Origin: a bacterium
GTDB lineage: Bacteria; Sumerlaeota; Sumerlaeia; SLMS01; JAHLLQ01
Length of the DNA: 64,000 nucleotides
NCBI GenBank assembly: GCA_020444065.1
Contig: JAHLLQ010000003.1
Location: forward strand, 132,979-196,978
Direction of reading: 5' to 3'
Positions 21,054 through 46,251 of this stretch are shown here, in pieces. A model generated the notes under the pieces. It did no database searches and was not told where the DNA came from. It saw nothing but the letters and a program-made list of their open reading frames with translations. The first letter of the stretch is position 1, and each line of letters starts with the position of its first letter. The position numbers and the translations under genes were made by a program.

Positions 21054-24000
21054 ATGGCAGATCAAAATCGCCCCACGAACCTCACCCTCGAGCAGGCGCT
21101 CAAACGCCGCATTCTGGTGCTCGACGGCGCCATGGGAACGATGATCCAGCGCTACAAGCTGCAGGAAGAGGACTTCCGCAGCGATCGCTTTCCGGATCAC
21201 GCGAAGGATCTGAAGGGGAACAACGATCTGCTGACGCTGACCCGCCCGGATGTGATCGAGGCCATTCACCGCGAGTACCTGGACGCCGGCGCGGACATCA
21301 TCGAGACGAACACGTTTAGCGCCACGCGCATCTCGCAGGCCGACTACGACCTGGAGGAGATCTGCTACGAGCTGAACCTGGAGGCTGCCCGCCTGGGTCG
21401 TCGCGTTGTGGACGCCAAGACGGCCGAGACGCCGGACCGGCCGCGGTACCTGCTCGGTTCCATCGGTCCGACGAATCGCACGGCGTCGCTCTCGCCGGAC
21501 GTGAACGATCCGGGCTATCGCGCCGTGACGTTCGATCAACTGGTCGAAGCCTACGCGGAGCAAACCCGCGGACTAATCGAAGGCGGCGTCGACGCGCTGC
21601 TTGTCGAGACGATTTTCGACACGCTGAATGCCAAGGCAGCCTTGTACGCCATTGAAACGGTTTTCGAGGAACGCGGCGCGCGCCTGCCGGTCATGATTTC
21701 CGTGACAATCACCGATCGCTCGGGCCGCACGCTTTCAGGGCAGACGCTGGAGGCTTTCTGGATTTCGATCGAGCGCTTCAATCCGTTGTCCGTCGGCATT
21801 AACTGCGCGCTCGGCGCGGAGGACATGCGCCCGTACCTGGAGGAGTTGTCCGCGATCGCAACGTGCTACACGAGCTGCTATCCGAACGCCGGTCTGCCGA
21901 ACGAGTTCGGCGAGTACGACGACACGCCGGCCAACATGGCGCGGGTGCTCGGGGGTTTCGCCGGCAGCGGTTGGCTGAATTTGATCGGCGGGTGCTGCGG
22001 CACGTCGCCGGCGCACATCTCTGCAATCGCCGAGGCCGTGCGCGAGCTTCCGCCGCGCAAGCGCCCCGATGTGCCACCCGTTTCGCGCTTCTCCGGTTTG
22101 GAGCCTGTCCGCGTGACGGCGGAGTCGAACCTGATCATGGTCGGCGAGCGCACGAACATCACAGGCTCGCCGAAGTTCGCTCGCCTGATCCGCGAAGGCG
22201 ATCTGGACGGTGCGTTGGCGGTTGCTCAGCAGCAGGTCGATAACGGCGCGCAGATCATCGACATCAACATGGACGAGGGCCTGATCGATTCGGAAGCCAC
22301 AATGGTGCGCTTCTTGAATCTGCTGGCGGCGGAGCCCGACATCTCGCGCGTTCCGATCATGGTAGACAGCTCGCGCTGGAGCGTCATCACCGCTGCGCTG
22401 CGTTGTATCCAGGGCAAGGCGATCGTCAATTCGATCAGCCTCAAGGAAGGCGAGGAGAAGTTCCTCGAGCACGCGCGCGAGATTCATCGCTTCGGTGCAG
22501 GCGTTGTCGTGATGGCGTTCGACGAGCAGGGTCAGGCGGATACGGCCGAACGCAAAGTCGAAATCAGCGAGCGCGCCTACAAGTTGCTCGTCGAGAAGGC
22601 CGGCTTCGATCCCACGGACATCATCTTCGATCCGAATGTGCTGACGGTCGGGACGGGCATCGAGGAGCACAACAACTACGCCGTGGCGTTCATCGAAGCG
22701 ACACGCGAGCTGAAGAAGCGTTGCCCCGGCGCGAAGGTCAGCGGCGGCATCAGCAACATCTCGTTCTCCTTCCGCGGCAATCGCCCCGTTCGCGAAGCGA
22801 TGCACTCCGCGTTCCTGTTCCACGCCATCAAGGCGGGGCTCGACATGGCTATCGTGAACGCCGGCATGGTCGAGGTCTACGAAGAGATTCCGAAGGATCG
22901 CCTGGAACTGGTCGAAGATGTTCTTCTCAATCGCCGGGAGGATGCCACCGAGCGCCTGATCGAGTACGCTGAGACCGTGAAGGGTGAGAAGAAGGACGAC
23001 GCCAAAACCGCCGCTGCGTGGCGCGATGGCACGGTTGAGGAGCGTCTTTCGCATGCTCTGATCAAGGGCATTGTCGAGTTCATCGATGAGGACGTTGAAG
23101 AAGCGCGCCAGAAGTTCGACCGCCCGCTCGAAGTGATCGAAGGGCCGTTGATGGACGGCATGAACGTCGTCGGCGACTTGTTCGGCAGCGGCAAAATGTT
23201 CCTGCCTCAGGTCGTGAAGAGCGCGCGCGTGATGAAGAAGGCCGTCGCCTGCCTTCTGCCCTACATGGAGAAGGAGAAGGAAGAACGCGGCATCACGAAG
23301 GGCGCGGCGAAGGTGCTGCTCGCGACCGTCAAAGGCGACGTCCACGACATCGGCAAGAATATCGTCGGCGTGGTTCTCGGATGTAATGGTTACGACATCA
23401 TCGATCTCGGCGTCATGGTGCCGACGGACAGAATCCTTCGCGAAGCCCGCGAGCAGGACGTCGACATCATCGGCCTGAGCGGCCTGATCACACCATCGCT
23501 CGACGAGATGGTTCACGTCGCGAAGGAGATGGAGCGCGAAGGTTTCAAGGTTCCGCTGCTGATCGGCGGTGCCACGACGAGCCGCATCCACACTGCCGTC
23601 AAGATCGCCCCGCAGTACAGCGCTCCCGTCGTGCATGTGCTCGATGCATCCCGCGCAGTCGGCGTGGTGCAGGGTTTGCTCGACGAAAAAGGTGGGACGG
23701 AGTACGCACGCCAGGTTGCCGAAGATCAGCAGACGTTGCGCGATCACCATCGCAGCAAGCAGGGCGAGGCGAAGCTCGTTTCGCTCGAGCAGGCCCGCGC
23801 GAATAAGCCGACGTTCGACTGGTCCAGCGCAAAGATCGACGAGCCAGAATTCCTGGGCCCAAAGCTGTACGATGTCGCGATCGAAGACCTCGTGCCGTTC
23901 ATTGATTGGACGCCATTCTTCCATGCGTGGGAGCTCAAGGGCGTGTACCCGAAGATTCTCGATCACCCGAAGTACGGCGAGCGTGCCCGCGAGCTGCAGC

Positions 24001-24740
24001 GCGATGCACAGAAGATGCTCGAGGATTTCATCACCAACAAATCGCTGACCGCGCGTGGCGTGCTCGGACTCTTCGCTGCCAACTCCGATGGTGACGATGT
24101 TGTCATCTACGAGGGCGAAACGCCTGTGAAGATACTGAACTTCCTGCGCCAGCAGGCGGAAAAGGATTCCGCCAAGTCGCATCTATGCCTAGCGGATTAC
24201 ATTGCTCCGCGCGACACGAAACGGCGCGACACAATTGGGGCTTTCGCAGTCACGGCAGGTGTTGGAGTGAAGGAACTGTGCGCCGTTTACGACGCCGATC
24301 ACGATGACTACCATTCAATCATGGTCAAGGTTCTCGCTGATCGTCTCGCGGAAGCATTTGCGGAGTACATCCACAAGCAGGCTCGCGATGCGTGGGGATT
24401 CGGCAAGGCGGAGAACTTCACGAACGACGATCTGATTGCAGAGAAGTATCGCGGCATTCGCCCGGCGCCGGGCTACCCGTCATGTCCGGATCATACGGAG
24501 AAGGCGAAGCTCTTCGAGTTGCTTGACGCGGAGAGAATCGGAGCGAACCTGACCGAGTCGTTCATGATGGATCCAGGCGCTTCGGTTTGCGGATACATGT
24601 TCGCGCACCCCGAGGCACGTTATTTCGATGTGCGCCCGATCGATCGCGATCAGGCCGCCGACTACGCGCAACGCAAGGGCGAGTCGGCGGAGTACGTCGA
24701 GCAATGGTTGGCGTCGGAGTTGTCGTACGATCCGTCGTAA
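21054..24740 (+). CDS. metH: Cobalamin-dependent methionine synthase MetH.
   Basis: Homocysteine-binding and pterin-binding modules. B12-binding '[11 protein letters not shown]' (DxHxxG). C-terminal AdoMet activation domain. Confidence 0.9.
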
Positions 24741-34575: not shown

Positions 34576-37500
34576 CTACTGAAAGACCCACGCATTCCCT
34601 GGCTTCACAGATAGCAGTTTCACCTGGTCCACCCAACCCGCGTCCGAGCCTTGCGACACAGACGAGTCCTTCTTGTACGACCACACGACCTGGTGATCTC
34701 CGGCATCGATCGGGAGACTGTACAGCGCCCAGTTCGTCTCGCCGGTGATGCGAGTTACCTCGCTTCCGTCCAGATACAAAGCGAGGTAATCCGACGTGGG
34801 CTGACACGAGACCTTCCACTGAAACTCCAGCGTGTCGGGCCCCGTAATCGTCGTGAAGAATGCCGACGTCTGGCTGTGCGTGATGGGATAACTCTGCGCC
34901 GCGTCCGCACCGTCGTAGCTCACATCATACTCACCATACCACGGATTGCTGGAGATGACTTGGAAATCCAAGCGGTAGCAATCCAACGCATCCGCCAGCG
35001 AGACGACCGGCGTCGCTGTCGGAACCGGTGTGGGTGTCGGAACCGGGCCGGGCGTGAACACGATCTGGTCCAACCATCCTGCATCGTCATAGTCGCTGAA
35101 CATGCTGTTCTTCCCATAGGACCACTTCACTTCGTGCTGCCCCGGTTGGATGTTGGCGGACCCTTCGTGCCAGTCCACCACTCCGGAAATCTGATCCTGC
35201 AGCACATCGTCGACCAGGAAGGACAACCAATCTCCTCCCGCCTGACTCGACACGCTCCACTGGTATGTCAGCGTCCCGGGCCCATCGAGAATCGTTGAGA
35301 CGAAGCTCGTCTGCCCATCGTAAACGTCACCAGATTGCGCCGCGTCCTCACCGTCCTGGGTGATCAATGTTTGCCCATACCAGGGATTGGAACCACCCGA
35401 AGTCCAAGCCAATCCTGTCGTGTCCAGGACCTCGCCAAGTGACGGGTCCGGATCCACCGAAACGCGATCCACCCATCCCGCGTCCTCCCCGGCGGATCCC
35501 GATGCGTCCTTCCAGTAGTACCATCCCACGTCGTGCTGCCCCTCTACGAGATGGTAGTACCGCCTCTCCCAATCTACGTCTCCACTGATATGGAAACGGC
35601 CATACCCGTCTGCGAGGAACTCCAGTTCATCCTTATTCTCTTCCGATGAAACCTTCCAGTTAAACGAGACCATCGCCGGGCCGTGGATGCGACCCTGCAG
35701 GTATGAAAGACCATTATGCCCAATCGAGCCTGTCCGGGCAGAATCAAAACCGAATGCCGACGTATCCGTGATCCCCGTCCAGCCGATCGTGTCCGGCGTC
35801 TCCCACGAAACCGCCTGACAATCCAATGCCTCGTCCAGGTCAATCCCCGACGGCGTGAACTGAACATTGTCCACCCACGCCTGGTCTGTCCCCGAGAAGT
35901 AGAGCAGGTATCTCCACGTCACCTTGTGGAGACCGCTTGGAATCGCCAGCGCCTTGTCCACCCAGTCCGCCGTGTTGTCCGCGTAATCCTTGAAATCATC
36001 GTCCAGCAGGAGAGTCAGATCTCCGGCATTCCCGACTGTGGATTCCTTCCATCTGTAGGTCAGCGTTCCCGGTCCGTAGATCCATGTTTCGAGCAAGGCC
36101 GGCATGTCCACTCCAGAAGGAGTGGGAGCTTCCGCCGCATCGCCATCCACAGCGGAAATCCCCGTCTGACTCGTCCAGGCTCCTCCCTCGCCAGATGTTG
36201 TCCACGGCAGGAACGTGTTCTCCACCGCGTCCCCAAGGTCGTTCATCTGATACGTCACCTTGTCGACCCATCCCGCGTCCGCACCGGCCGTGCCTGAAGC
36301 ATCCTTTACATAATCCCACCGGCACGTATGGGTGCCCGAAGGAATCGTGATGGTCCGCTGCTGCCAGTCCGTCTCGCCGCTGATCGAAATGGGGAGGAGG
36401 ATGTCCATCCGGAAGCGGAGTTCGTCACTGGCATCGCAGGACGATTTCCACAGGAACGTCATCGTTCCTGGCCCCGTCACGGTGCAGGACATGCGCGACA
36501 TCTGAGAATCCGCCGTCGCGCCGCAACGGGCCGCGCTCCCACCATAGAACGAATCCTGACTCTGTCCGTACCACACGGGCGAAGTATCACTCGTCCACTC
36601 CAGCGCGGGGCAATCCAGCGCCTCGCCCAGCGACACCAACCCCAACTCCACGTGATCCACCCAGCCCCGGTCTTGCCCCGACGACACGGACGCGTTCTTC
36701 CGGTACTTCCATGTCAGCGTGTGCCCATTCTCGCCAAAAAGGAAACTGCGGCCTTCCCAATCCTGCTCGCCGCTGATCGCCTCCTGCTCCACACCATCGA
36801 TTTCAAAAGCCAGGAAATCTCCACCCTCTTCGGATGAAACCTTCCAGGCAAACTGCACGCTTCCCGGGCCGTCGACAATCGTGCTGAAAGACGTCGTTTC
36901 ACCATCGGCGATGGGAGCACTTCGCGCCGCATCGTTCCCGTAGTCGGCCGCCATCACAACACCCACCCATGGCGCCGCCGTCGTGTATTTCCACGTGACA
37001 TCGGTCTTATCCACCGCCTCGCCGATACTCAGCAGTCCCTCCGACGTGATAGCGTACGTCGCCTGGAACGTCGACGGGAGTGTAAATACTCGCGTGATTC
37101 GGTAGATATTCAGGAGCCCAACACCCGAAACCGATCCGGAATACGCCCGACTGTTCGGTGTCGAGAGCGAAGAGAAATAGCGCGACGAAGTGTAGTAGTC
37201 GTCTTCGTCGACACCACCGCCGGCCACGATCTCTTCCAACCCATCCGCTTCCATCAGTCGGATCAGCTTGCGGGATGTGTAGCTGTTATCGAACAGGAAA
37301 CCGTCGCCCGTCCCATTCAACTCGGCGTCAAGATGCCAGACCACGAGACCATCGTTGGGATACGTGAAGTCGTTCGTATCCTCCGTCCGCCGCGACCGGT
37401 TCTGGATCAGAAAATACTCCGTAAACGGACTGGCACCTGACGCCCCGGGCATGATCATGATGGCATCGGGATACTCCGACGAGGGACGCAACGATTTCGA

Positions 37501-38538
37501 AATTATGCTCTCCGAAGTCGAAATGACCGTCGGCGTCAGCCAGCCCAACATCCATTTGCTGAACGCGTTGTGGTCCCCCCAGTTCGCGTCCATCATATCC
37601 AGACCGCCGACACCCCCCACCGGTCCGACACTCTCATCGTAGTCGTAGAGATCCGGCAGCCCCAGAGCGTGTCCTGTTTCATGGATCACCACCTCCGCCT
37701 GGAACTCCGACCCCAGCGGACGCCCTTCCCATTGCCAGGAGAAAACGCCGAGCTTCTTCCCATCCACCGTGAACGAATCGCCGGCGAATTCCGAAGCGCT
37801 CATATCGCACCAGGCCCACCAAAGGTTCCCCCACCCGTCGTCGGGCCCGGTCCAGCAGACCATGAAGTAATCGATCGTCCCGTTTCCGTCGTTGTCGTAG
37901 ACGGAGAAGTCGTGCGTTGGGTCCCAGTGCTGCAGGGCCTCCTTGATCAGGACCCCGGGGCCGTACCAGGTGCGGGGGTGAGCCGCCTGGTACCAGGGAA
38001 GCACATCCCCCTGGATATTCAGCGCACCGTACGACGATCGCTTGTAATATTCCGTCAGACTCTCGAGGGGTTTCTCGTCCGCCTCGCCGGTCCCGAAGAG
38101 TTTGTGCTCGATCACCGAAACATCGTTATGCGCGGGGTACTCGGGGAACTCGATGGGGAGAACGAAAATGCGAGGCGATCCGCTGGCGGGCAGCCCGGTG
38201 GGATAGGGAAGTTGACTGCGCGGCACTTCCTCCCCCCGGGCGGCAGCCTGAAGGACCTCGGCATGACGACGCGCCAGGGCTGGATCGACAAGATGGTTCC
38301 CGAGCGATCGGGCGAACTCCATGCGCACTGCCAGGCTCCCATCCGCAGCATAGCCCTGCAATTCTCCCGGATCCGGGGGCTCCATGGCGGCAAGGTGCCC
38401 TGCGGCCACAAACAGCAAAACAACCAGGAAGGGCCGCGCGATCTGCCAGACGCCGCGGCTCCCAAACCACGCGTTATTTTCAATCTGAGGTGTCGCGGGG
38501 TAGTTCGCAGAATGATGCCTTGCCGTAAGGGACGGCAT
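34576..38538 (-). CDS. Giant secreted M6-family (immune inhibitor A-like) zinc metalloprotease with about 10 C-terminal beta-domain repeats.
   Basis: 'VVIHETGHALGLPDLYD' HExxH plus the downstream D. Signal/TM segment. Recurring '...DAGWVD.V' repeat modules. Confidence 0.7.
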   Translation of the reverse strand: MPSLTARHHSANYPATPQIENNAWFGSRGVWQIARPFLVVLLFVAAGHLAAMEPPDPGELQGYAADGSLAVRMEFARSLGNHLVDPALARRHAEVLQAAARGEEVPRSQLPYPTGLPASGSPRIFVLPIEFPEYPAHNDVSVIEHKLFGTGEADEKPLESLTEYYKRSSYGALNIQGDVLPWYQAAHPRTWYGPGVLIKEALQHWDPTHDFSVYDNDGNGTIDYFMVCWTGPDDGWGNLWWAWCDMSASEFAGDSFTVDGKKLGVFSWQWEGRPLGSEFQAEVVIHETGHALGLPDLYDYDESVGPVGGVGGLDMMDANWGDHNAFSKWMLGWLTPTVISTSESIISKSLRPSSEYPDAIMIMPGASGASPFTEYFLIQNRSRRTEDTNDFTYPNDGLVVWHLDAELNGTGDGFLFDNSYTSRKLIRLMEADGLEEIVAGGGVDEDDYYTSSRYFSSLSTPNSRAYSGSVSGVGLLNIYRITRVFTLPSTFQATYAITSEGLLSIGEAVDKTDVTWKYTTAAPWVGVVMAADYGNDAARSAPIADGETTSFSTIVDGPGSVQFAWKVSSEEGGDFLAFEIDGVEQEAISGEQDWEGRSFLFGENGHTLTWKYRKNASVSSGQDRGWVDHVELGLVSLGEALDCPALEWTSDTSPVWYGQSQDSFYGGSAARCGATADSQMSRMSCTVTGPGTMTFLWKSSCDASDELRFRMDILLPISISGETDWQQRTITIPSGTHTCRWDYVKDASGTAGADAGWVDKVTYQMNDLGDAVENTFLPWTTSGEGGAWTSQTGISAVDGDAAEAPTPSGVDMPALLETWIYGPGTLTYRWKESTVGNAGDLTLLLDDDFKDYADNTADWVDKALAIPSGLHKVTWRYLLYFSGTDQAWVDNVQFTPSGIDLDEALDCQAVSWETPDTIGWTGITDTSAFGFDSARTGSIGHNGLSYLQGRIHGPAMVSFNWKVSSEENKDELEFLADGYGRFHISGDVDWERRYYHLVEGQHDVGWYYWKDASGSAGEDAGWVDRVSVDPDPSLGEVLDTTGLAWTSGGSNPWYGQTLITQDGEDAAQSGDVYDGQTSFVSTILDGPGTLTYQWSVSSQAGGDWLSFLVDDVLQDQISGVVDWHEGSANIQPGQHEVKWSYGKNSMFSDYDDAGWLDQIVFTPGPVPTPTPVPTATPVVSLADALDCYRLDFQVISSNPWYGEYDVSYDGADAAQSYPITHSQTSAFFTTITGPDTLEFQWKVSCQPTSDYLALYLDGSEVTRITGETNWALYSLPIDAGDHQVVWSYKKDSSVSQGSDAGWVDQVKLLSVKPGNAWVFQ

Positions 38539-38833
38539 ACTGATCTCCCTCTGGAGGGACGTGTGATCTCGAAAGCGGGTCACGTCTTGGGGTGGATACT
38601 AGACGGCCGTTGGGGCGCCGTCAAAGCCAGAGGAAGGCTGGGGCGCATCCTGAAGCTGTTGAACGGCAACGCACCGGTCAAAGCCCCCCAAAGAACTCAC
38701 TTCGCGCGTGGAGCAGAGTCCGGTGAGAGCATGATTTCAGAGAAGCGTGACACATATGTGACGCAAGAAGCCCCTCGGCTCGAAGGCCAAGGGGCGGTGC
38801 ATTCTATAAGTGCTTGTCTTTGAATGATTGATA

Positions 38834-38909
38834 TGGTGGAGCTGAGGGGAGTCGAACCCCTGACCTCTGCATTGCGAACGCAGCGCTCTACCAACTGAGC
38901 TACAGCCCC
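38834..38909 (-). tRNA. tRNA-Ala (anticodon CGC).
   Basis: Reverse complement gives GGGGCTGTAGCTCAGTTGGTAGAGCGCTGCGTTCGCAATGCAGAGGTCAGGGGTTCGACTCCCCTCAGCTCCACCA. It has a G3:U70 pair, anticodon loop TTCGCAA, a TPsiC arm and a CCA end. Confidence 0.85.
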
Positions 38910-39094: not shown

Positions 39095-39240
39095 AAGAGG
39101 GCAACATAGGTTGCTGGTGCTCCTCGCGATCCGCGCGGGGGGCGGCAAGGGGAAGTCCGGTGAGAGTCCGGCGCAGGCCCGCTACGGTAATCGCGTCCGC
39201 AAGGAGCGCGAAAGCCCGATACCGCCAGTCATCCGACGAC
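39095..39240 (+). promoter_or_regulatory. Cobalamin (B12) riboswitch.
   Basis: 'GGTGCTCC...AAGGGGAAGTCCGGTGAGAGTCCGGCGCAGGCCCGCTACGGTAA...AAGCCCGATACCGCCAGTC' matches the cobalamin-riboswitch core and B12 box. A terminator-type expression platform follows. Confidence 0.75.
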
Positions 39241-39302
39241 GAAGTGCCCTACCCTCTCGAGGTCCGGAGCGGCAGGGGACGAGCCGGATTAGATTTTGCG
39301 CG

Positions 39303-39345
39303 CCCGTCCTCGGTCAGTCCGCCCGAGGGACGGGCGTTTCGTATT
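39303..39345 (+). terminator. Riboswitch expression-platform terminator.
   Basis: CCCGTCCTCGG-tcagtccgc-CCGAGGGACGGG followed by CGTTTCGTATT. Confidence 0.55.
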
Positions 39346-39394
39346 CCGTCCACGAGGAATTCCGAAGGCGAATTCCGCGGGAAAGCGCAAACTC

Positions 39395-40081
39395 ATGTTG
39401 TTCTCCGGCTCTCATTCGAGCGAAAAAGACCACAGTCCCCGAAGGGAACGGGCAGGCCGCGGTTTCACGTTGGTGGAACTGCTGATCGTTGTGGCGATTC
39501 TGGCCATTCTGGCGGCGATCGCCGTGCCGAATCTGCGCGAGGCAACCCGCCGCGCGCGGACGGCCGAGTGCGCCTCGAATCTGAAGACGATCGCGACGGC
39601 CCTGACGCTGTACCGCACGGATTGGAATCATCTGCCGCTGTCCGATGGCGTGGCGGGACTGGGCGATTCGCGCGGCCGCACGCAGTTCGGCAATGGGCCG
39701 GCGGCGAACGGCTACTGGAACGGCGTGCCGAATGTGCTGGTGGATGCCGGCTACATCGGCAAGCGCAAGACGCTGTTTTGCCCATCGCTGGCGCGCGAGT
39801 ATCGCAACCGGGCAGAGAATCTGCGCTACGCCTACAACACGGGCGCGGCAGATTCGAACGGGTTCATCGGCAGCGACGGAACGCCGGTCGACGGCGTGGG
39901 CGCGGGCGGGCGCACGTGGCTTTGCCGCTGCGTGCATTTGAACTCGCACGACTGGGCGCCGGACCGCTACATCCCGTTCCCCCATGGGCCGACCGCGAGC
40001 CCTGCAGACAATGAGTGGGGCAGCGAAAACGTGCTCTGGAGCGACTTCTCCGTCACCCTGGAGCCCGGGAGTTCGCCATGA
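39395..40081 (+). CDS. Prepilin-type N-terminal cleavage/methylation domain protein of the planctomycete DUF1559 ('H-X9-DG') class.
   Basis: 'GFTLVELLIVVAILAILAAIAVPNL' prepilin signature. C-terminal 'HGP...ENVLWSDFSV'. Confidence 0.7.
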   Translation: MLFSGSHSSEKDHSPRRERAGRGFTLVELLIVVAILAILAAIAVPNLREATRRARTAECASNLKTIATALTLYRTDWNHLPLSDGVAGLGDSRGRTQFGNGPAANGYWNGVPNVLVDAGYIGKRKTLFCPSLAREYRNRAENLRYAYNTGAADSNGFIGSDGTPVDGVGAGGRTWLCRCVHLNSHDWAPDRYIPFPHGPTASPADNEWGSENVLWSDFSVTLEPGSSP

Positions 40082-41862
40082 GCCCGAAGAATTTCACGCC
40101 CCGCCTTGCCGTGGGCGGCGCAGGGAGTCTGCCCCACACGGATCCGCGCGATGCGGTCGAGTTCGTGCGCCGCACGACGCCGCGTCTCCCCTACTGGCCC
40201 CAGCTTCCGGCCCGCCGTCGAGACGAGATGATGCTGGCCCAAGTGCTCGGGCACCTGCCGTTGATGCGCGCCATCGACGAAGCCCACATGCACTACCAAT
40301 GGCGCCGTGGATTCGAGCCGCGCGAGTTGGATAAGCTGGATGGCGCAATCCCCTCGGAATCCGCCGCGGGATTCGAGGTCTTTCTGCGAGCCGCCGCGCG
40401 ATTCACGGAAGCGAAGGCCTTTCGCGGCCAGACGCCCGGGCCGGTGACGCTCGCGATGGCGATCGAGCGAGAAGGCAGCAGCCCCGTCATGGACGACCCG
40501 CCGTACGCCATGGCGGTGGCGCGCTATGCCGGGCGCGTCGCGGCATGGCAGGCCCGCCAACTGGCGGCCTACGCCGAAGGGCGGCCGGTGGCGATCACCA
40601 TGGACGAGCCCGCGCTGGCCGTACTGCTGCAGCGCGGCGCCCAGGCCCGAGCCGCGCGCGAGCAGATCGAGCTGATGCTGGCCGTCGCCGCAGAAACCAT
40701 CCGCAAGGCCGGCGCGATCGTCGGGCTGCACTGCTGCAGCGACACGCATTGGCCTTCCGTCCTCAGCCTCGGCCTGGACATCGTGAATTTTGATGCGACG
40801 AACCACTTGAGCTCGTTCATGGAGCACGAGGATTCCGTGAAGACCTTCATCGACGGCGGCGGCGTGATCGCCTGGGGCGCTGTGCCCACCGATGGCAGTG
40901 GTGAAGCCGACAACGTGGCCCGCATTCTCTTCGAGGTCGTGGCGACGACGTTCGGCCCGCGCGCGCGCCAAGTCTTCCAGCAGTCCTTCATCACGCCGGC
41001 CTGCGGGCTGGGGACCCTCGATGTCGAGACGGCCGAAACCGTGATGGCGCAGTGCCAGCAGGTTGCCGATATGCTGCGACGCCAGATGGGGCCGAGCTTC
41101 TCGACGAGTTCCGATGCCCTGCCCGCTGAGGGCACCCCCGCTCCGGAACCGGAGCCCGCGCCCGAAGCGGAAGAACCTCCGGTCGTAGAGGAAGAGGAGT
41201 CACCCGCCGAGGCCGAGGAGCAGGCGCCGGCTCGCCTGCGCATCACGCGCGTCTACACGAAGACCGGCGACGACGGAAAGACCGGCCTCGTTGGTGGCCA
41301 GCGCGTCGGCAAGAACGACCCGCGGATCGAGGCCTACGGAACCGTGGACGAGCTGGCGGCGGCGCTGGGCGCGGCGCGCCTGGCCGTCGAGACGGAGAAC
41401 GGCCAGTTCGAATCGATCGAGCAGGCAGAGATGCTCGATTCCCATCTGCAATTCATCCAGAATCAGCTTTTCACGCTCGGCGGCGACCTGGCGACGCAGC
41501 TTGAAGATCGCCACCCGCAGATGCCCCTGATTGGCGAGGCCGAGACGGCCTATCTGGAACGGCTCTGCGACAGCTTCAACGCGGAGCTCGAGCCGCTGCA
41601 GGACTTCATTCTCGCCGGCGGCAGCTCCACGGCCGTCGCCTTGCACCAGGCCCGCACCATCGCCCGTCGCGCCGAACGCCGTACCGTGACGCTCAGTATG
41701 ATCGAGAACATCGGTCCGCATGCCACCGTGTACCTGAATCGACTCAGCGACGCCCTCTTCGTGCTCGCTCGGTGGGCAAACCGACACCAAGGGATGGACG
41801 AAACCACATGGCAGCGCGATCAGCCCGAGCCCGCCATGCCGGAATCCAACGAGACGGAGTAG
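40078..41862 (+). CDS. Fusion of a MetE-like (UroD/MetE-fold, Zn-dependent methyltransferase-like) domain with a PduO-type ATP:cob(I)alamin adenosyltransferase.
   Basis: N-terminal 'LHCCSD' and 'ITPACGLGT' resemble the MetE-family Zn ligands. Acidic/Pro linker. C-terminal 'ITRVYTKTGDDGKTGLVGGQRVGKNDPRIEAYGTVDEL' is the PduO/MMAB signature. ATGA overlap with the upstream gene. Confidence 0.7.
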   Translation: MSPKNFTPRLAVGGAGSLPHTDPRDAVEFVRRTTPRLPYWPQLPARRRDEMMLAQVLGHLPLMRAIDEAHMHYQWRRGFEPRELDKLDGAIPSESAAGFEVFLRAAARFTEAKAFRGQTPGPVTLAMAIEREGSSPVMDDPPYAMAVARYAGRVAAWQARQLAAYAEGRPVAITMDEPALAVLLQRGAQARAAREQIELMLAVAAETIRKAGAIVGLHCCSDTHWPSVLSLGLDIVNFDATNHLSSFMEHEDSVKTFIDGGGVIAWGAVPTDGSGEADNVARILFEVVATTFGPRARQVFQQSFITPACGLGTLDVETAETVMAQCQQVADMLRRQMGPSFSTSSDALPAEGTPAPEPEPAPEAEEPPVVEEEESPAEAEEQAPARLRITRVYTKTGDDGKTGLVGGQRVGKNDPRIEAYGTVDELAAALGAARLAVETENGQFESIEQAEMLDSHLQFIQNQLFTLGGDLATQLEDRHPQMPLIGEAETAYLERLCDSFNAELEPLQDFILAGGSSTAVALHQARTIARRAERRTVTLSMIENIGPHATVYLNRLSDALFVLARWANRHQGMDETTWQRDQPEPAMPESNETE

Positions 41863-41868
41863 CGCCCC

Positions 41869-42081
41869 ATGCCGATTACGCATTGCTACTGCAAGAACCT
41901 CGCGTTCCGCGAGATCCTGGCGTGGGCGAGGGAGAACGAAGTCCTGACCGCCGAAGAGGTGGCGCGCCGGTTGAATTGCGGCAAGTCCTGTCGCCTCTGC
42001 CTGCCGTACATTGCCTACTGCCTCGCCACCGGCGTTACCGAAGTGCCCTATCCCTGCCCCCCGTTGGATTCGCCGGGATGA
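41869..42081 (+). CDS. Bfd-like [2Fe-2S]-binding domain protein.
   Basis: 70 aa; C-x-C ... C-x2-C pattern ('HCYC'...'CGKSCRLC') typical of BFD-like ferredoxins. Confidence 0.65.
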   Translation: MPITHCYCKNLAFREILAWARENEVLTAEEVARRLNCGKSCRLCLPYIAYCLATGVTEVPYPCPPLDSPG

Positions 42082-42983
42082 GAGCCGACCGAACATTGCG
42101 TGTTCTGGCGCTCGCGGGTGCCGTTCTCGCGCTGGTGCTCGTGGCAAGGGCCCCGGCGGCCCCAGCCGATGATCCGACCACGCCCACACGCATCATCTCC
42201 TGCGCACCAAACCTGACCCAGATGCTCTTCGCCCTCGGCGCCGGCGACCAGGTGGTGGGCGTGACGCGCTACTGCCAGGACCCGCCCGAGGCCGCGACGC
42301 GCCCGGCGATGGGGGACCTCTTCAGCCCCAACCTGGAGGCCATGGTCGCCGCCGATCCGGACATGGTTGTTGCCTATCCCAGCAGCGCAAAGGTGATCGA
42401 TTTCTTCAATAACCGACAAGCCATTCGGCTTGTCGTTACCAATACTTGCGAAACCCGCGAAGAGATCGCCCGCACCATGCGCGATCTCGGCCGAGCCCTT
42501 GGTCGAGAGGATCGAGCGGAGGAGTTGATTGCCGCAACAAACGCTGATATTGCTCGACTTGAGGATGGCTGGAAGGACGAGCCACCGCTCAAGGTCCTGA
42601 TCGTTGTCGGTCGCCAGCCCGGCAGCCTGGCGAATCTCTATGCCGCCGGGAGGGGCACCTATCTGGACGAGCTTTTGACGATTTCGGGCGCGGAGAACGT
42701 CGTCCCTGGGGAGCTTGGTAAGTATCCCGTCCTCAACCGCGAGGCCATCCTCTCCATGCGGCCCGATGTCATCATCGAAACGCACCACGAGGAGGAGACC
42801 GATCGGGAACACGCCGAGGCGCGCGCCGCCTGGAAGGCCATGTCGCCCCTGCCAGCCGTGCGCGATGGGAGGATCCTCTTCCTGATGGACAAGCGCGTCC
42901 TCTTGCCGGGGGCTTTCCTCGAACGCGACGCACGCACGCTGCACGATCTGATCCGCCCTGAGACCGTCGGCACGGAGCCATGA
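42078..42983 (+). CDS. btuF: Periplasmic substrate-binding protein of a cobalamin/iron-siderophore ABC transporter (BtuF-like).
   Basis: Signal peptide. 'IISCAPNLTQMLFALGAGDQVVGVTRYC' is the BtuF/FecB-family N-terminal motif. ATGA coupling to Bfd. Confidence 0.7.
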   Translation: MRADRTLRVLALAGAVLALVLVARAPAAPADDPTTPTRIISCAPNLTQMLFALGAGDQVVGVTRYCQDPPEAATRPAMGDLFSPNLEAMVAADPDMVVAYPSSAKVIDFFNNRQAIRLVVTNTCETREEIARTMRDLGRALGREDRAEELIAATNADIARLEDGWKDEPPLKVLIVVGRQPGSLANLYAAGRGTYLDELLTISGAENVVPGELGKYPVLNREAILSMRPDVIIETHHEEETDREHAEARAAWKAMSPLPAVRDGRILFLMDKRVLLPGAFLERDARTLHDLIRPETVGTEP

Positions 42984-43762
42984 AAAGCGCTTACACCATT
43001 GAAAACGTACGGTTTGCCTATTCTGGGCCATCGCCGCTGCTGGATAGCGTTGACCTGGAGATTCCCGCTGGCCGCATCGTCGCCATCGTCGGCCCGAATG
43101 GCGCCGGCAAGAGCACCCTCCTGCGCCTGATGACGGGTCTGCTGAGGCCCGAGAGAGGCCGGATTCTGCTCCAGGGCAATCCCCTCCAGGCGATGCCACG
43201 CCGCGAGATCGCCCGGACCGTTGCCGTCGTTCCTCAAGGCGAATCATCCGCCTTCCCGTTCACGGTCGAGGAGATTGTGCAGATGGGCCGCGCGCCTCAT
43301 CTGCGGGGTCCCCTGGCCCAGGAATCTGAGGACGACGTCGCGATTTCCCGACAAGCTATACGGCTTGTCGGGCTGGAGCCCCTGCTCCACCGCCCGGTCT
43401 CCCAGCTTTCCGGCGGAGAGCGACAACTCGTACTGATCGCCCGGGCCTTTGCACAGCAGACGCCGATCCTGTTGTTGGACGAGCCGACGGCGTCGCTCGA
43501 TCTCGCGCACCAGCAACAGATCCTCCGCCTCGTCGTCCGCCAGGCGCGCGAGCAGTCCCAGACTGTCGTACTGATTTTGCACGACTTGAACCTCGCCGTT
43601 CGCTTCTGCGACGAGATCGTGGTGCTGCACGAGGGTCGCGTTGCCGCCCACGGTACGCCGGAGGAGATCCTGCAGCTCGAGCTCCTTGAGCGCGTCTACG
43701 CCGCCGAGATCTGGACGGCGCCCGGGCCGGACGGACACCCGATCGTGGGGTTGCGGCCATGA
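42980..43762 (+). CDS. btuD: ABC transporter ATP-binding protein (BtuD/FecE-like).
   Basis: Walker A 'GPNGAGKST', signature 'LSGGERQ', Walker B 'LLLDEPTASLD'. Confidence 0.8.
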   Translation: MKSAYTIENVRFAYSGPSPLLDSVDLEIPAGRIVAIVGPNGAGKSTLLRLMTGLLRPERGRILLQGNPLQAMPRREIARTVAVVPQGESSAFPFTVEEIVQMGRAPHLRGPLAQESEDDVAISRQAIRLVGLEPLLHRPVSQLSGGERQLVLIARAFAQQTPILLLDEPTASLDLAHQQQILRLVVRQAREQSQTVVLILHDLNLAVRFCDEIVVLHEGRVAAHGTPEEILQLELLERVYAAEIWTAPGPDGHPIVGLRP

Positions 43763-44781
43763 CCAAGCGACCCCGCATCGCCATTGTTTTTGCGAGCCTG
43801 ATTGTGCTCCTCGCGATCGTCTTCATCGTCTCGCCGCTGGTCGGCCCAACGTCGATCTCCTGGTCGCGCGCTCTCGATCATTCGATCCCGATCGACCAAA
43901 ACACCGATCGCCTGATCTTCGAAACCATCCGACTGCCGCGGGCGCTCTTCGGCGTGCTGGCAGGAGCCGTGCTGGCCTTGGCCGGCGCGGTCTTCCAGGC
44001 ACTCTTGCGAAACGACCTGGCGACGCCTTACACCCTCGGTATCAGCGGCGGCGCGACCTTCGGCGCTCTCGGCACCATCCATCTCCTTGCCGCGGGCGTC
44101 GCCACCGGCTTCGCTGCCCTGCTCATCCCGGGGGCCGCCTTTGCCGGAGCCGCCATCGCCGTGGCGCTGATCCTCGCTCTTGCGCACCGCCCTCGCGTAG
44201 CCGATCGCATGAGCACGCTCCTGCTGGCGGGCGTGACCATGAACCTGATCTTCGCCGCCGGCGTCCTGATCCTCCAGTACCTCGCCAACCCTTACGAAGC
44301 CTACGGCATGCTGCGCTGGATGATGGGCGGGCTCGACGTCGCCAGCCTCACCGTCCCCGGGCTGCTGCTGCTGCCCGTCCTTGCTGGCGGCGCCTTCCTG
44401 ATCTCGCGAGCGCACGCGTTGAACCTCATGACCTTGGGCGACGCGACCGCCACCCACCTTGGCATCGACGCCAAGCGCACGCGCCTGACCTGCCTCGGGG
44501 TCGCTGCAGCGCTGACTTCTCTGATCGTGGCGTATGCCGGGCCGATCGGGTTCGTCGGCCTGATCGTCCCCCACGCCATTCGTCGGCTGCTGGGGCCCGA
44601 CAATCGAATCCTCCTGCCTGCCTCCGCCCTGGCAGGCGCCGCGTTCCTGATCGCGTGCGACACCGCCGCTCGTGCCATCGGCGGAGCCACTGAAATTCCC
44701 GTCGGAATATTGACCGCCTGCCTGGGCGGCCCATTCTTCCTTTGGATCCTCTTCCGCCAGGGCGCGGCCGCCACTCGCTGA
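43759..44781 (+). CDS. btuC: ABC transporter permease, FecCD/BtuC family.
   Basis: Nine to ten TM helices. 'LGISGGATFGA' FecCD motif. Confidence 0.8.
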   Translation: MTKRPRIAIVFASLIVLLAIVFIVSPLVGPTSISWSRALDHSIPIDQNTDRLIFETIRLPRALFGVLAGAVLALAGAVFQALLRNDLATPYTLGISGGATFGALGTIHLLAAGVATGFAALLIPGAAFAGAAIAVALILALAHRPRVADRMSTLLLAGVTMNLIFAAGVLILQYLANPYEAYGMLRWMMGGLDVASLTVPGLLLLPVLAGGAFLISRAHALNLMTLGDATATHLGIDAKRTRLTCLGVAAALTSLIVAYAGPIGFVGLIVPHAIRRLLGPDNRILLPASALAGAAFLIACDTAARAIGGATEIPVGILTACLGGPFFLWILFRQGAAATR

Positions 44782-44907
44782 TCCGTAAGATCCAACACCA
44801 CCAACTGCCAATGTCCTTGAGAGCATCCGGGTTGCGTTGGGTCCGGGGGGTGGGGCTGAATTACAGATTGGGCTTTGGCCCACGATTTTGTGCCAGGGAG
44901 TACTTCT

Positions 44908-46251
44908 ATGAGCCAGCCGATCGTTTCTATCGCCGGATTGCGGGGGATTGTCGGTACGTCTTTCACGCCGGAGATTATTCTGCCGTACGTGGCCGCTTTT
45001 GCGGATCTGGTGAAGCCGAAGCGCGTGGTCGTGGGCGGCGACAGTCGTCCGTCGCGTGCGTGGGCGCAGCCGGTTGTGGAGTCGATTCTACGGTCGCGCG
45101 GGGTGGATGTGATCTCGATCGGGCTGGTGCCGACGCCGACGATGGGGATGGCGGTGCGGCGCTACAAGGCGGGCGGCGGCATTGCGATTACGGCGAGCCA
45201 CAATCCGTCGGAATGGAACGGGCTGAAGTTCTTTCACTCGAAGGGCGAGTTTCTGACGCCGAAGCATCACGAGCAGTTGCATGCGCTGATGAAGAAGCCC
45301 GCGTCGCCGAAGGGCACTGCGAAGATCGGCAGTTGGCGCGAGGAAACGGACATGGCGCAGTATCACCTGGAGCAGTTGCTGAAGGCGTTGCCGCAGGTGA
45401 CTCGCCGGCGGCGCAAGCTGCGCATCGTGATCGATTGCTGCAATGGTGCTGGGACGATTCTGGCTCCGTTGGTGGCGACGGCGTTGGGCGTGAAGGTCGA
45501 TGCGATTTTCGACGATCCCGGGCGGACGTTCCCGCGCGGGGCGGAGCCGTTGCCGAAGAATCTGCGTGTGTTGTCACGCGAGGTGAAGCGCATTGGGGCG
45601 GATTTGGGTGCGGCGATCGATCCCGATGCAGATCGCATTGCGTTTGTGGATGAAACGGGTCGCCCGATTGGCGAGGAGAGGACGCTGATTCTGGCGGCGG
45701 ATTCGTACCTGTCGCTGACGGGCGAGAAGACAAAGCTTGTGGCGAATCTTTCGACGAGCATGGGGCTGGATCGCCTGGCGGAGAAGTACAACACGACGGT
45801 GAAGCGCACGAAGATCGGCGAGGCGCATGTTCTGGCGGGGATTCGCGCGGCGCGTGCGAAGATCGGCGGCGAAGGAAACGGCGGCGTGATCTTGCCACTG
45901 GTGCATCCGGGTCGCGATGCGGCGACGGCGCTGGCGTTGATTCTGCTCGGCATGCAAACGAGGAACAAGACGCTGTCGAAGTGGAACGAGGTCGTGACGG
46001 ACTATGAGCTCGTGAAGGGCAAAGTGGAACTCGGTGGCTTGTCGGTTGCTGAAACGCTGAAGCGCGCGAAGGCGGAGTTCAAGGACGCCGTCTCCGTGGA
46101 CGAAACGGACGGCGTGAAGTTCCTGTGGGACAACGCGTGGGTGCATTTGCGTCCAAGCGGAACGGAGCCGATTCTGCGCATCTTTGTTGAGGCGCCGACA
46201 AAAGCGGATGCGCGCAAGCTGGTGAAGCGCGCTGGAAACGCGATCGCGTAA
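44908..46251 (+). CDS. Phosphohexomutase (phosphoglucosamine mutase/phosphomannomutase family).
   Basis: Active-site 'ITASHNPSEWNGLKF'. Metal-binding 'DPDADR'. Four-domain layout. Confidence 0.8.
   Translation: MSQPIVSIAGLRGIVGTSFTPEIILPYVAAFADLVKPKRVVVGGDSRPSRAWAQPVVESILRSRGVDVISIGLVPTPTMGMAVRRYKAGGGIAITASHNPSEWNGLKFFHSKGEFLTPKHHEQLHALMKKPASPKGTAKIGSWREETDMAQYHLEQLLKALPQVTRRRRKLRIVIDCCNGAGTILAPLVATALGVKVDAIFDDPGRTFPRGAEPLPKNLRVLSREVKRIGADLGAAIDPDADRIAFVDETGRPIGEERTLILAADSYLSLTGEKTKLVANLSTSMGLDRLAEKYNTTVKRTKIGEAHVLAGIRAARAKIGGEGNGGVILPLVHPGRDAATALALILLGMQTRNKTLSKWNEVVTDYELVKGKVELGGLSVAETLKRAKAEFKDAVSVDETDGVKFLWDNAWVHLRPSGTEPILRIFVEAPTKADARKLVKRAGNAIA

Follow-up and report, generated by a model that had tools for sequence, protein, structure and literature searches.

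In Bacteroides, the loci for vitamin B12 (cobalamin) uptake combine a riboswitch, the TonB-dependent transporter BtuB, the surface lipoproteins BtuG, BtuH and BtuJ, and the BtuFCD importer, and BtuG is a propeller protein. In human cells, CblC (MMACHC) removes the upper ligand of cobalamin in a thiol-driven reaction, and the reduced cofactor is handed to ATR (MMAB) or to methionine synthase. The C-terminal domain of BtuH2 binds B12 at 6.4 pM and was reported to have "no known structural homologs" (PMC8941943); a copy of this B12-binding domain is present in BtuG1 (bioRxiv 10.1101/2022.11.17.516869). Here, we describe a six-gene operon behind a cobalamin riboswitch in a genome of Candidatus Sumerlaeota. 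It lies in a 64,000-nt stretch of contig JAHLLQ010000003.1 (positions 132,979 to 196,978; this whole stretch is called the window) from a 5.2 Mb source assembly that is 97% complete (GCA_020444065.1, hereafter G000). The operon encodes a type IV pilin/pseudopilin-like protein (P0003), a fusion of a MetE-like domain to a PduO-type adenosyltransferase, a Bfd-like protein, and proteins resembling BtuF, BtuD and BtuC. We read it, at a probability of about 0.68, as a B12-starvation operon of B12-auxotrophic Sumerlaeota that serves capture with the help of the pilin, import by BtuFDC and corrinoid processing.

In related genomes, the pilin-like gene closes a cassette of fixed order over 51 loci, namely riboswitch, a gene for a protein called X or W, a gene for a protein called Y or Z, and the pilin gene, which is directly followed by BtuF/D/C genes in 9 loci. 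This arrangement is like that of Bacteroides in that a riboswitch heads a locus joining extracellular or periplasmic binders (candidates, in Sumerlaeota) with BtuFCD, in that a beta-propeller gene comes first, and in that the structural model of Y resembles the BtuH domain. Unlike the Bacteroides loci, the Sumerlaeota cassette has no TonB-dependent transporter, its binder candidates are not lipoproteins, Y has no sequence-level match to BtuH, and a pilin-like gene takes the fixed slot before BtuF, where Bacteroides has the TonB-dependent BtuB.

The linkage between pilin and riboswitch was examined in relatives of the host. When the best P0003 match of each of 20 related genomes was taken, a same-strand RF00174 riboswitch was found upstream in 13. 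The head domain of the pilin was used to scan species-representative genomes, which yielded 51 pilin loci, 38 of them with a same-strand riboswitch upstream. The nhmmer riboswitch profile was benchmarked against Rfam on 40 loci, where it recovered all 14 Rfam-positive loci and no extras, and the 11 weakest riboswitch calls were all confirmed by Rfam at 72-116 bits. In 6 of the 13 riboswitch-negative loci, the contig breaks off ahead of the pilin or of the genes before it. As a control, 20 PduO-centred loci from the same genomes (293 kb) held 1 riboswitch, and within G000 only 1 of 35 P0003 matches was riboswitch-linked. The linkage extends over many families of the class, and the conserved synteny with B12 uptake that the first-pass annotation had proposed to look for is present in Sumerlaeota, with the riboswitch upstream and, in 9 loci, the importer genes downstream. 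The literature searched, supplements excluded, held nothing tying pilin-like genes to cobalamin riboswitches and nothing on B12 in Sumerlaeota beyond incidental mentions; the words cobalamin, vitamin, B12 and TonB do not occur in two Sumerlaeota genome papers.

P0003 carries a prepilin motif, matching PF07963 (N_methyl) at 32.6 bits (cut-off 21.2) and TIGR02532 at 32.4 bits (cut-off 16.3). The prepilin leader of its subfamily has G or A at -1, F at +1 and E at +5, and F24, T25 and E28 are invariant in 21 sequences. The AF2 model (pLDDT 78.7) shows a helix at residues 26-77, followed by a small beta-sheet head with C-terminal strands. In an exhaustive structural search with this model, the 17 best VIA matches were all pilins or pseudopilins, at modest Z scores of 3.7-6.4 over 80-132 aligned residues; those named at the top (Z 4.7-6.4) are a type IVb pilin, PilA4, EpsG, PilA1, ComP and PulG. 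Foldseek matched the N-terminal helix of pilins alone (E >= 0.06). The label "DUF1559-class", given to the protein at first pass, turned out to be weak: PF07596 (SBP_bac_10) scores 27.7 bits over a cut-off of 23.3, with only profile positions 4-49 of 268 covered, and reaches E <= 1e-4 in 4 of 20 ortholog ORFs scanned. G000 holds 35 P0003-like matches (E <= 1e-8), and the pilin motif occurs in 41 of its ORFs. Full-length relatives of P0003 stand apart as a subfamily of their own, marked by 22 invariant positions in the head domain and by GNGPAAxGxW, RYAYN and WxxRC motifs; P0003 belongs to this Sumerlaeota pilin subfamily, which is tied to B12 loci.

P0003 shares the prepilin leader, the long N-terminal helix and the beta-sheet head with pseudopilins of the type II secretion system (T2SS) and with type IV (competence) pilins, and a prepilin peptidase (PF01478) and 7 secretin-domain genes (PF00263) are encoded in G000. 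It differs from these proteins in that its gene follows a vitamin riboswitch and stands inside a transporter operon with no assembly genes nearby, and in that its head domain has motifs of its own. Short pilin-like genes of another subfamily (206-216 aa) flank PduO-Bfd-BtuF in three genomes of the same family (G001, G005 and G010; loci L024, L026 and L028); their orientation varies, and the copy in G010 is directly upstream and co-directional.

The proteins encoded ahead of the pilin in the cassettes are candidate binders with type I signal peptides. W is a beta-propeller of the PQQ_2/BamB type (58-88 bits), Z gives weak matches of the BNR_4/GH43 type, and Y, which has a signal peptide, is about 260 aa long. 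The top structural match of the Y model (pLDDT 82.5) is the "H domain" of BtuG1 (8blw_B 388-660; Z 13.3, rmsd 3.2 A, 168 residues), and the second is the BtuH2 C-terminal domain (7biz_B 314-593; Z 13.2). After these come generic CBM32 modules at Z <= 8.9, and Foldseek also ranks 8blw_B top (E 7e-4). Since the best matches of its model are the B12-binding domains of BtuG1 and BtuH2, Y is a candidate B12 binder, with a modelled BtuH fold that sequence methods do not reveal. The two kinds of second partner are divided between pilin types: PHG-type pilins follow Y in 13 loci and Z in 0, and PADY-type pilins follow Z in 16 loci and Y in 2. No homology between Y and Z was detected (hhalign probability 0.3%).

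G000 itself encodes an X, which is secreted, 412 aa long and without a Pfam family, bears a beta-propeller-like signature, and is 28-32% identical to the first gene product of the riboswitch-X-Y-pilin cassettes of relatives. The second cobalamin riboswitch of G000 (C14:223381-223579, minus strand; L001/L115; 90.3 bits) stands ahead of it. As for the C-terminus of Y, 29 ORFs of at least 100 aa in G000 (e.g. C9:354620-355432, C14:223704-225773) end in W-x-[LIVMF]-Y plus 0-2 residues, and the same pattern occurs 30 aa before the C-terminus in 1; the tailed ORFs are mostly large, and include Y and an LTD/endonuclease protein. The tail is present in 15 of 17 Y proteins of relatives, and Y homologues in other phyla have C-terminal domains of the type IX secretion system (T9SS) or dockerin sorting domains at the tail position. 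It may be an undescribed C-terminal sorting tag. A general pairing of W-x-L-Y-tailed proteins with pilin genes in G000 was tried and rejected (0 pairs).

The riboswitch of the window was checked with the RF00174 covariance model, which it matches over the full model (1-189) at 42.3 bits, above the gathering score of 31.5. The aptamer comes to 146 nt in all, with 60 model positions (90-149, the peripheral P6 region) swapped for 11 nt. A whole-genome search of G000 with RF00174 returned the same site and the one other riboswitch ahead of X, and a sequence profile agreed on two. The riboswitch that precedes the MetE-like domain, PduO and Bfd genes in the relative G002 (L025 11236-11394; 159 nt, 37 bits) is short like that of the window (146 nt, 42 bits), and those ahead of the X/Y/pilin cassettes are longer (170-340 nt, 60-116 bits). 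Short forms of the cobalamin riboswitch without the peripheral extension differ in ligand preference.

Downstream of the aptamer, a GC-rich hairpin lies inside 39301-39336 and is followed by TTTCGTATTC; the terminator scan reports 39320-39336 plus TTTCGTATTC, and the minimum free energy (MFE) fold gives the hairpin. The terminator platform proposed at first pass is seen at consensus level, as a hairpin with a T-rich tail, from a scan that overall was not above shuffles (4 sites, 4.1 expected). A scan found no sigma-70-like promoter on the plus strand upstream of the riboswitch. All six plus-strand genes after the leader were assigned by Pfam and NCBIfam. They had been described as coupled throughout by ATGA overlaps, which is true of four of the five junctions (40078, 42078, 42980 and 43759); the junction of fusion and Bfd genes is a 6-nt gap. 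Because of the ATGA overlap at 40078, where the stop codon of the pilin gene overlaps the start codon of the fusion, there is no room for a terminator or promoter between the two, and the pilin gene is part of the operon. Contigs that match the window without a difference were found in two metatranscriptome libraries of the study to which the probable source sample belongs; they cover the leader (39115-39287 and 39115-39301, the latter ending at the hairpin foot), the pilin (39379-40010 and 39444-39813) and the MetE-like domain (40929-41140 and 40989-41215). They leave 41216-45100 uncovered, give neither levels nor transcript ends, and are a weak hint that the locus is transcribed.

The last three genes encode a class III binding protein, an ABC ATPase and a FecCD permease together (PF01497, PF00005 and PF01032). 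All three score under the equivalog cut-offs (BtuF 76 against 234, BtuC 217 against 461 and BtuD 146 against 281 bits), and B12 is the probable substrate because of the riboswitch and PduO context. The physiology of the host was examined by family searches of G000. The first-pass annotation had taken it for a planctomycete, which was not borne out, as the host is a member of Candidatus Sumerlaeota and 47 of the 51 related loci are recorded as Candidatus Sumerlaeota, Sumerlaeia or candidate division BRC1. The same annotation was right that these cells lack classical TonB/BtuB, in that no TonB-dependent receptor barrel was found in the 97%-complete genome; across the phylum, such a barrel was found in 11 of 57 genomes at least 85% complete, with at most one match per genome. 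G000 likewise gave no match to MetE, CbiC, CobS or the CoFeSP subunit CdhD (PF03599). It encodes a full-length B12-dependent MetH (TIGR02082 1739 bits; C5:154077-157610), 3 methylmalonyl-CoA-mutase-type genes and 10 B12-binding domains, and thus the host needs both methylcobalamin and adenosylcobalamin. Since no marker gene for corrin-ring synthesis or lower-ligand attachment appeared among those searched, the host reads, from its gene content, as a B12 auxotroph.

The second gene of the operon was confirmed to encode a single polypeptide that joins a MetE-like N-terminal domain (N-domain) to PduO, and a second, independently assembled protein (P0007) has the same composition at 71% identity. 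The longest contig of the P0007 fusion is 3,202 bp, and a contig of 3,202 bp also carries an 83%-identical pilin. The PduO domain is recognised by TIGR00636 (178.2 bits, cut-off 108.45) and PF01923 (187 bits), and matches PduO-type chains of the PDB at E 1e-34. In the N-domain, H218, C220, D239 and C309 (the HCDC zinc ligands) are invariant in 36 sequences and line up with HxC and PxCGL in MetE. S17 of GSLPH is nearly invariant and D176 of DEP invariant; they align with IGSFPQT and IDEPA of MetE and are the counterparts of the homocysteine-binding S433 and D599 of E. coli MetE. Overall similarity to MetE is remote: PF01717 scores 19.7 bits (E 5.6e-4), below its gathering score of 21, hhalign gives E 4.5e-4 with a probability of 33%, and a profile search of PDB sequences retrieves MetE alone at E 0.28. 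The domain has more than 2000 stand-alone homologues of about 350 aa, which are often labelled methionine synthase II.

Characterised core methionine synthases take methylcobalamin as methyl donor to homocysteine in vitro (PMC7857596), and the core-MetE of Dehalococcoides belongs to the MesB-type core synthases (Deobald et al. 2020, PMC7005905). Price et al. (2021, PMC7857596) noted that a MesB-like protein may have a different role where the organism has another methionine synthase; GapMind 2026 does not mention MesB. With MetH present and CoFeSP absent, G000 fits the latter case. The N-domain is like MesB in being a domain of about 345 aa without the folate-binding half, with HCDC ligands in which Asp replaces Glu and with the GS(L)P and DEP motifs. 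It is unlike MesB in that the linked CoFeSP, the proposed methyl donor of MesB, is missing from a genome that already has MetH, in that it is fused to PduO within a B12 uptake operon, and in that PF01717 stays under its cut-off.

Gene neighbourhoods bear on what the N-domain does. N-domain and PduO are adjacent as separate genes in the relatives G006 and G002, the latter with the order riboswitch-Ndom-PduO-Bfd, and PduO-Bfd adjacency occurs in 5 of 20 loci of relatives. Of 80 N-domain loci examined in metagenomes, 11 were riboswitch-positive in pre-screening, and Rfam confirmed 10. In L134 the order is Ndom-CbiZ-CbiB, and in L163 it is BtuC-BtuD-FhuF-type 2Fe-2S protein-Ndom. In L126 (4922-7471) the match runs into a 674-aa CobQ/CobB-like ORF (CbiA plus GATase_3) under a cobalamin riboswitch, with genes for a methyltransferase, a BtuF-like protein and BtuC behind it; the locus holds either another type of N-domain fusion or a frameshifted gene. 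These three contexts favour a putative role in corrinoid processing. Four more Sumerlaeota N-domain loci (L196-L199) had no riboswitch by nhmmer, and one of them has a Bfd-like gene upstream.

Demethylation of methylcobalamin by the N-domain would produce cob(I)alamin, the form that PduO takes as its substrate, so the fusion would follow a simple chemical logic. The coupling of salvage to adenosylation in one protein, which had been suggested at first pass, is plausible from the domain composition. That the MesB-like domain strips methylcobalamin of its methyl group and hands cob(I)alamin on to PduO is, in our estimate, slightly short of an even bet. Such a reaction would be like the human CblC-to-ATR route in removing the alkyl ligand by a thiol before hand-off to a PduO-type adenosyltransferase; it would be unlike it in that the fold of the N-domain is unrelated and the thiol would be zinc-activated homocysteine and not glutathione.

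The coordinates of the operon and of other features of the window are collected in Table 1. Upstream of the operon, on the opposite strand, are a 1335-aa ORF without Pfam family (34576-38583, minus) and a tRNA-Ala(CGC) gene (38834-38909, minus), and downstream is a gene of the phosphoglucomutase/phosphomannomutase family (44875-46251). Other RNA elements found on Sumerlaeota contigs are a T-box leader (L051 1773-2104, the same as L067 12656-12987; 97 bits, just above the cut-off of 93) and an Acido-Lenti-1 RNA (L086 12125-12171; 42 bits).

Table 1. Features of the window that belong to, or bear on, the operon behind the cobalamin riboswitch (positions count from the first letter of the window).
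Feature	Position	Strand	Evidence or remark
MetH, B12-dependent methionine synthase	21099..24632	+	TIGR02082 1739 bits; 15 kb ahead of the operon; would use the imported cofactor
Cobalamin riboswitch aptamer, short form	39098..39243	+	RF00174 42.3 bits, E 5.2e-8
Terminator-like hairpin with T-rich tail, candidate expression platform	39301..39345	+	Sequence, scan and MFE fold; consensus-level match
Type IV pilin/pseudopilin-like protein, 228 aa (P0003)	39395..40081	+	N_methyl, TIGR02532, AF2 model, synteny
Fusion protein, 594 aa	40078..41862	+	N-domain, linker and PduO
Fusion N-domain, residues 1-345, core-MetE/MesB-like zinc-thiol methyltransferase domain	40078..41112	+	Conserved zinc site
Fusion linker, residues 346-391, Pro/Glu/Ala-rich	41113..41250	+	Length varies in fusion P0007
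Fusion PduO-type ATP:cob(I)alamin adenosyltransferase domain, residues 392-594 and stop codon	41251..41862	+	PF01923, TIGR00636
Bfd-like [2Fe-2S] protein, 70 aa	41869..42081	+	PF04324 27.7 bits (cut-off 26); Cys 6, 8, 41, 44 (CxC...CxxC)
BtuF-like periplasmic binding protein, signal peptide	42078..42983	+	PF01497 100.9 bits; NF002894 BtuF 76 bits
BtuD-like ABC ATPase	42980..43762	+	PF00005 121 bits; corrinoid/heme ABC ATPase models ~267 bits
BtuC-like FecCD permease	43759..44781	+	PF01032 274 bits; BtuC models 205-217 bits
Terminator-like hairpin about 90 nt past btuC	44869..44892	+	Scan, consensus match

Several observations weigh against reading the locus as a B12-starvation operon with a dedicated pilin. 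At the locus itself, the riboswitch score is modest (42.3 bits), the fold of the leader has a z-score of -1.51, which is not significant, and the RNA contigs may be DNA carry-over, none of them bridging the pilin/fusion junction at 40078. Of the cassette partners, X owes its propeller call to weak NHL matches and to a language-model lead toward NHL/SGL propellers, and for Y there was no Pfam family in 18 members and no BtuH chain among the PDB sequences retrieved with its profile. The cassette is also scattered in G000, where X (P0138) is under the second riboswitch, Y (P0139) is at a separate locus, which has no riboswitch, behind a small ferredoxin gene, and the pilin joined the importer operon. 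Across the phylum, Rfam found no riboswitch in 7 of the 45 pilin loci that could be assessed, and the related genomes are kin, so that locus counts overstate independence. Finally, the N-domain also occurs in other contexts: L148 reads riboswitch-MetE-Ndom, L184 has the N-domain alone under a riboswitch, divergent from riboswitch-controlled nrdAB, and the N-domains of L134, L138, L144 and L152 are divergent from split MetH.

These last contexts fit equally well a methionine-synthase isozyme, in which case the N-domain would back up MetH under B12 scarcity, as metE and nrdAB do elsewhere, and its fusion to PduO would reflect shared regulation. The presence of MetH and absence of MetE in G000, the intact zinc and homocysteine motifs, and the name methionine synthase that the homologues bear in their sources all agree with this. 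The domain nevertheless has no folate-binding half, and the characterised core enzymes require a methyl-corrinoid donor (PMC7857596), so that B12 would not be spared; G000 moreover has no CoFeSP gene. The covalent fusion to PduO in two organisms, the adjacency of the two genes in G006 and G002, and the homologue operons with CbiZ-CbiB or BtuC/BtuD point instead to a corrinoid substrate, and we regard the isozyme as possible but on the unlikely side.

The pilin could, alternatively, be a pseudopilin of a T2SS-like machine that exports or anchors X/W and Y/Z, with B12 crossing the outer membrane in some other way. GspG is the best NCBIfam match of P0003 (49 bits, below the cut-off) and EpsG and PulG are among its structural matches; Y or Z is always encoded immediately upstream, the pilin subgroup tracks this partner, Y-family proteins of other phyla bear sorting domains (T9SS C-terminal domains, dockerins), and there are the 7 secretin-domain genes of G000. 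Yet a lone pseudopilin, with no ATPase, platform or minor pseudopilins in the cassette, would be an odd way to specify secretion, the G000 pilin shares its operon with the importer instead of X or Y, and the TonB-receptor search of G000 found no other outer-membrane route for a ligand of 1.3 kDa. We therefore hold export of the binders as the pilin's whole role to be doubtful. It is very improbable that the pilin-like gene is an ordinary paralogue placed in the operon by a local accident and without a B12 role, because, against its many paralogues in G000 (35 P0003-like matches, 41 pilin-motif ORFs), the 7 assessable ortholog loci without riboswitch and the other-subfamily pilins in varying orientation near PduO-Bfd-BtuF in three relatives, there stand a riboswitch that, in 38 of 51 ortholog loci, is always upstream and on the same strand (control, 1 in 293 kb), a fixed slot between Y/Z and BtuF, a C-terminal domain with 22 invariant positions across families, and a stop codon that overlaps the start codon of the fusion.

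In a B12-starvation operon, scarce cobalamin would let transcription past the terminator by way of the riboswitch, and the six proteins would be made. The pilin would be a dedicated piece of the B12-capture apparatus of the phylum, beside the secreted candidate binders X/W and Y/Z. Because most of the phylum is without TonB-dependent receptors, we propose that it forms or primes a short pilus or pseudopilus through a secretin, which might display binders or pull cargo across the outer membrane; BtuFDC would then carry B12 over the inner membrane. In the processing steps envisaged, the MesB-like domain would strip the methyl group from methylcobalamin using a zinc-activated thiol (homocysteine), the resulting cob(I)alamin would pass to the fused PduO domain and be adenosylated, and the Bfd-like [2Fe-2S] protein might give electrons to reduce other cobalamin forms. 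We infer, by analogy with known uptake loci, that the pilin belongs to the capture and delivery apparatus; candidate roles are retrieval of cargo via a secretin, export or anchoring of binders, and a membrane-tethered periplasmic chaperone. The most specific form of the proposal, a TonB-independent uptake of B12 by pilus or pseudopilus in diderm Sumerlaeota (pilin, binders and secretin, delivering to BtuF) together with conversion of methylcobalamin to adenosylcobalamin by the MesB-like and PduO domains in the manner of CblC and ATR, is tentative, and we would bet against it being right in full.

The locus is of a known kind, the riboswitch-controlled B12 uptake and salvage locus, and what is new in it are two unprecedented members and the phylum-wide cassette behind one of them. 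For several little-studied phyla it is a standing question how nutrients as large as B12 pass the outer membrane without TonB-dependent transporters, and the pilin, the BtuH-like binder and the propeller proteins offer for it a concrete gene set that is phylum-wide and clonable. If Y has the modelled fold, the BtuH fold would reach outside Bacteroidota and take in proteins that escape all sequence models. A specific physiological context also emerges for one member of the very large, unexplained expansion of pilin-like paralogues. The fusion offers a testable function for MesB-like proteins that occur beside another methionine synthase, which Price et al. had left open. If that function is true, it would be an enzyme for removing the methyl ligand from scavenged methylcobalamin ahead of adenosylation. 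We know of no bacterial catalyst for that removal. Taken at its full extent, the proposal would give Sumerlaeota a TonB-independent, pilus-dependent route of vitamin uptake, and a bacterial counterpart of the human hand-off from CblC to ATR.

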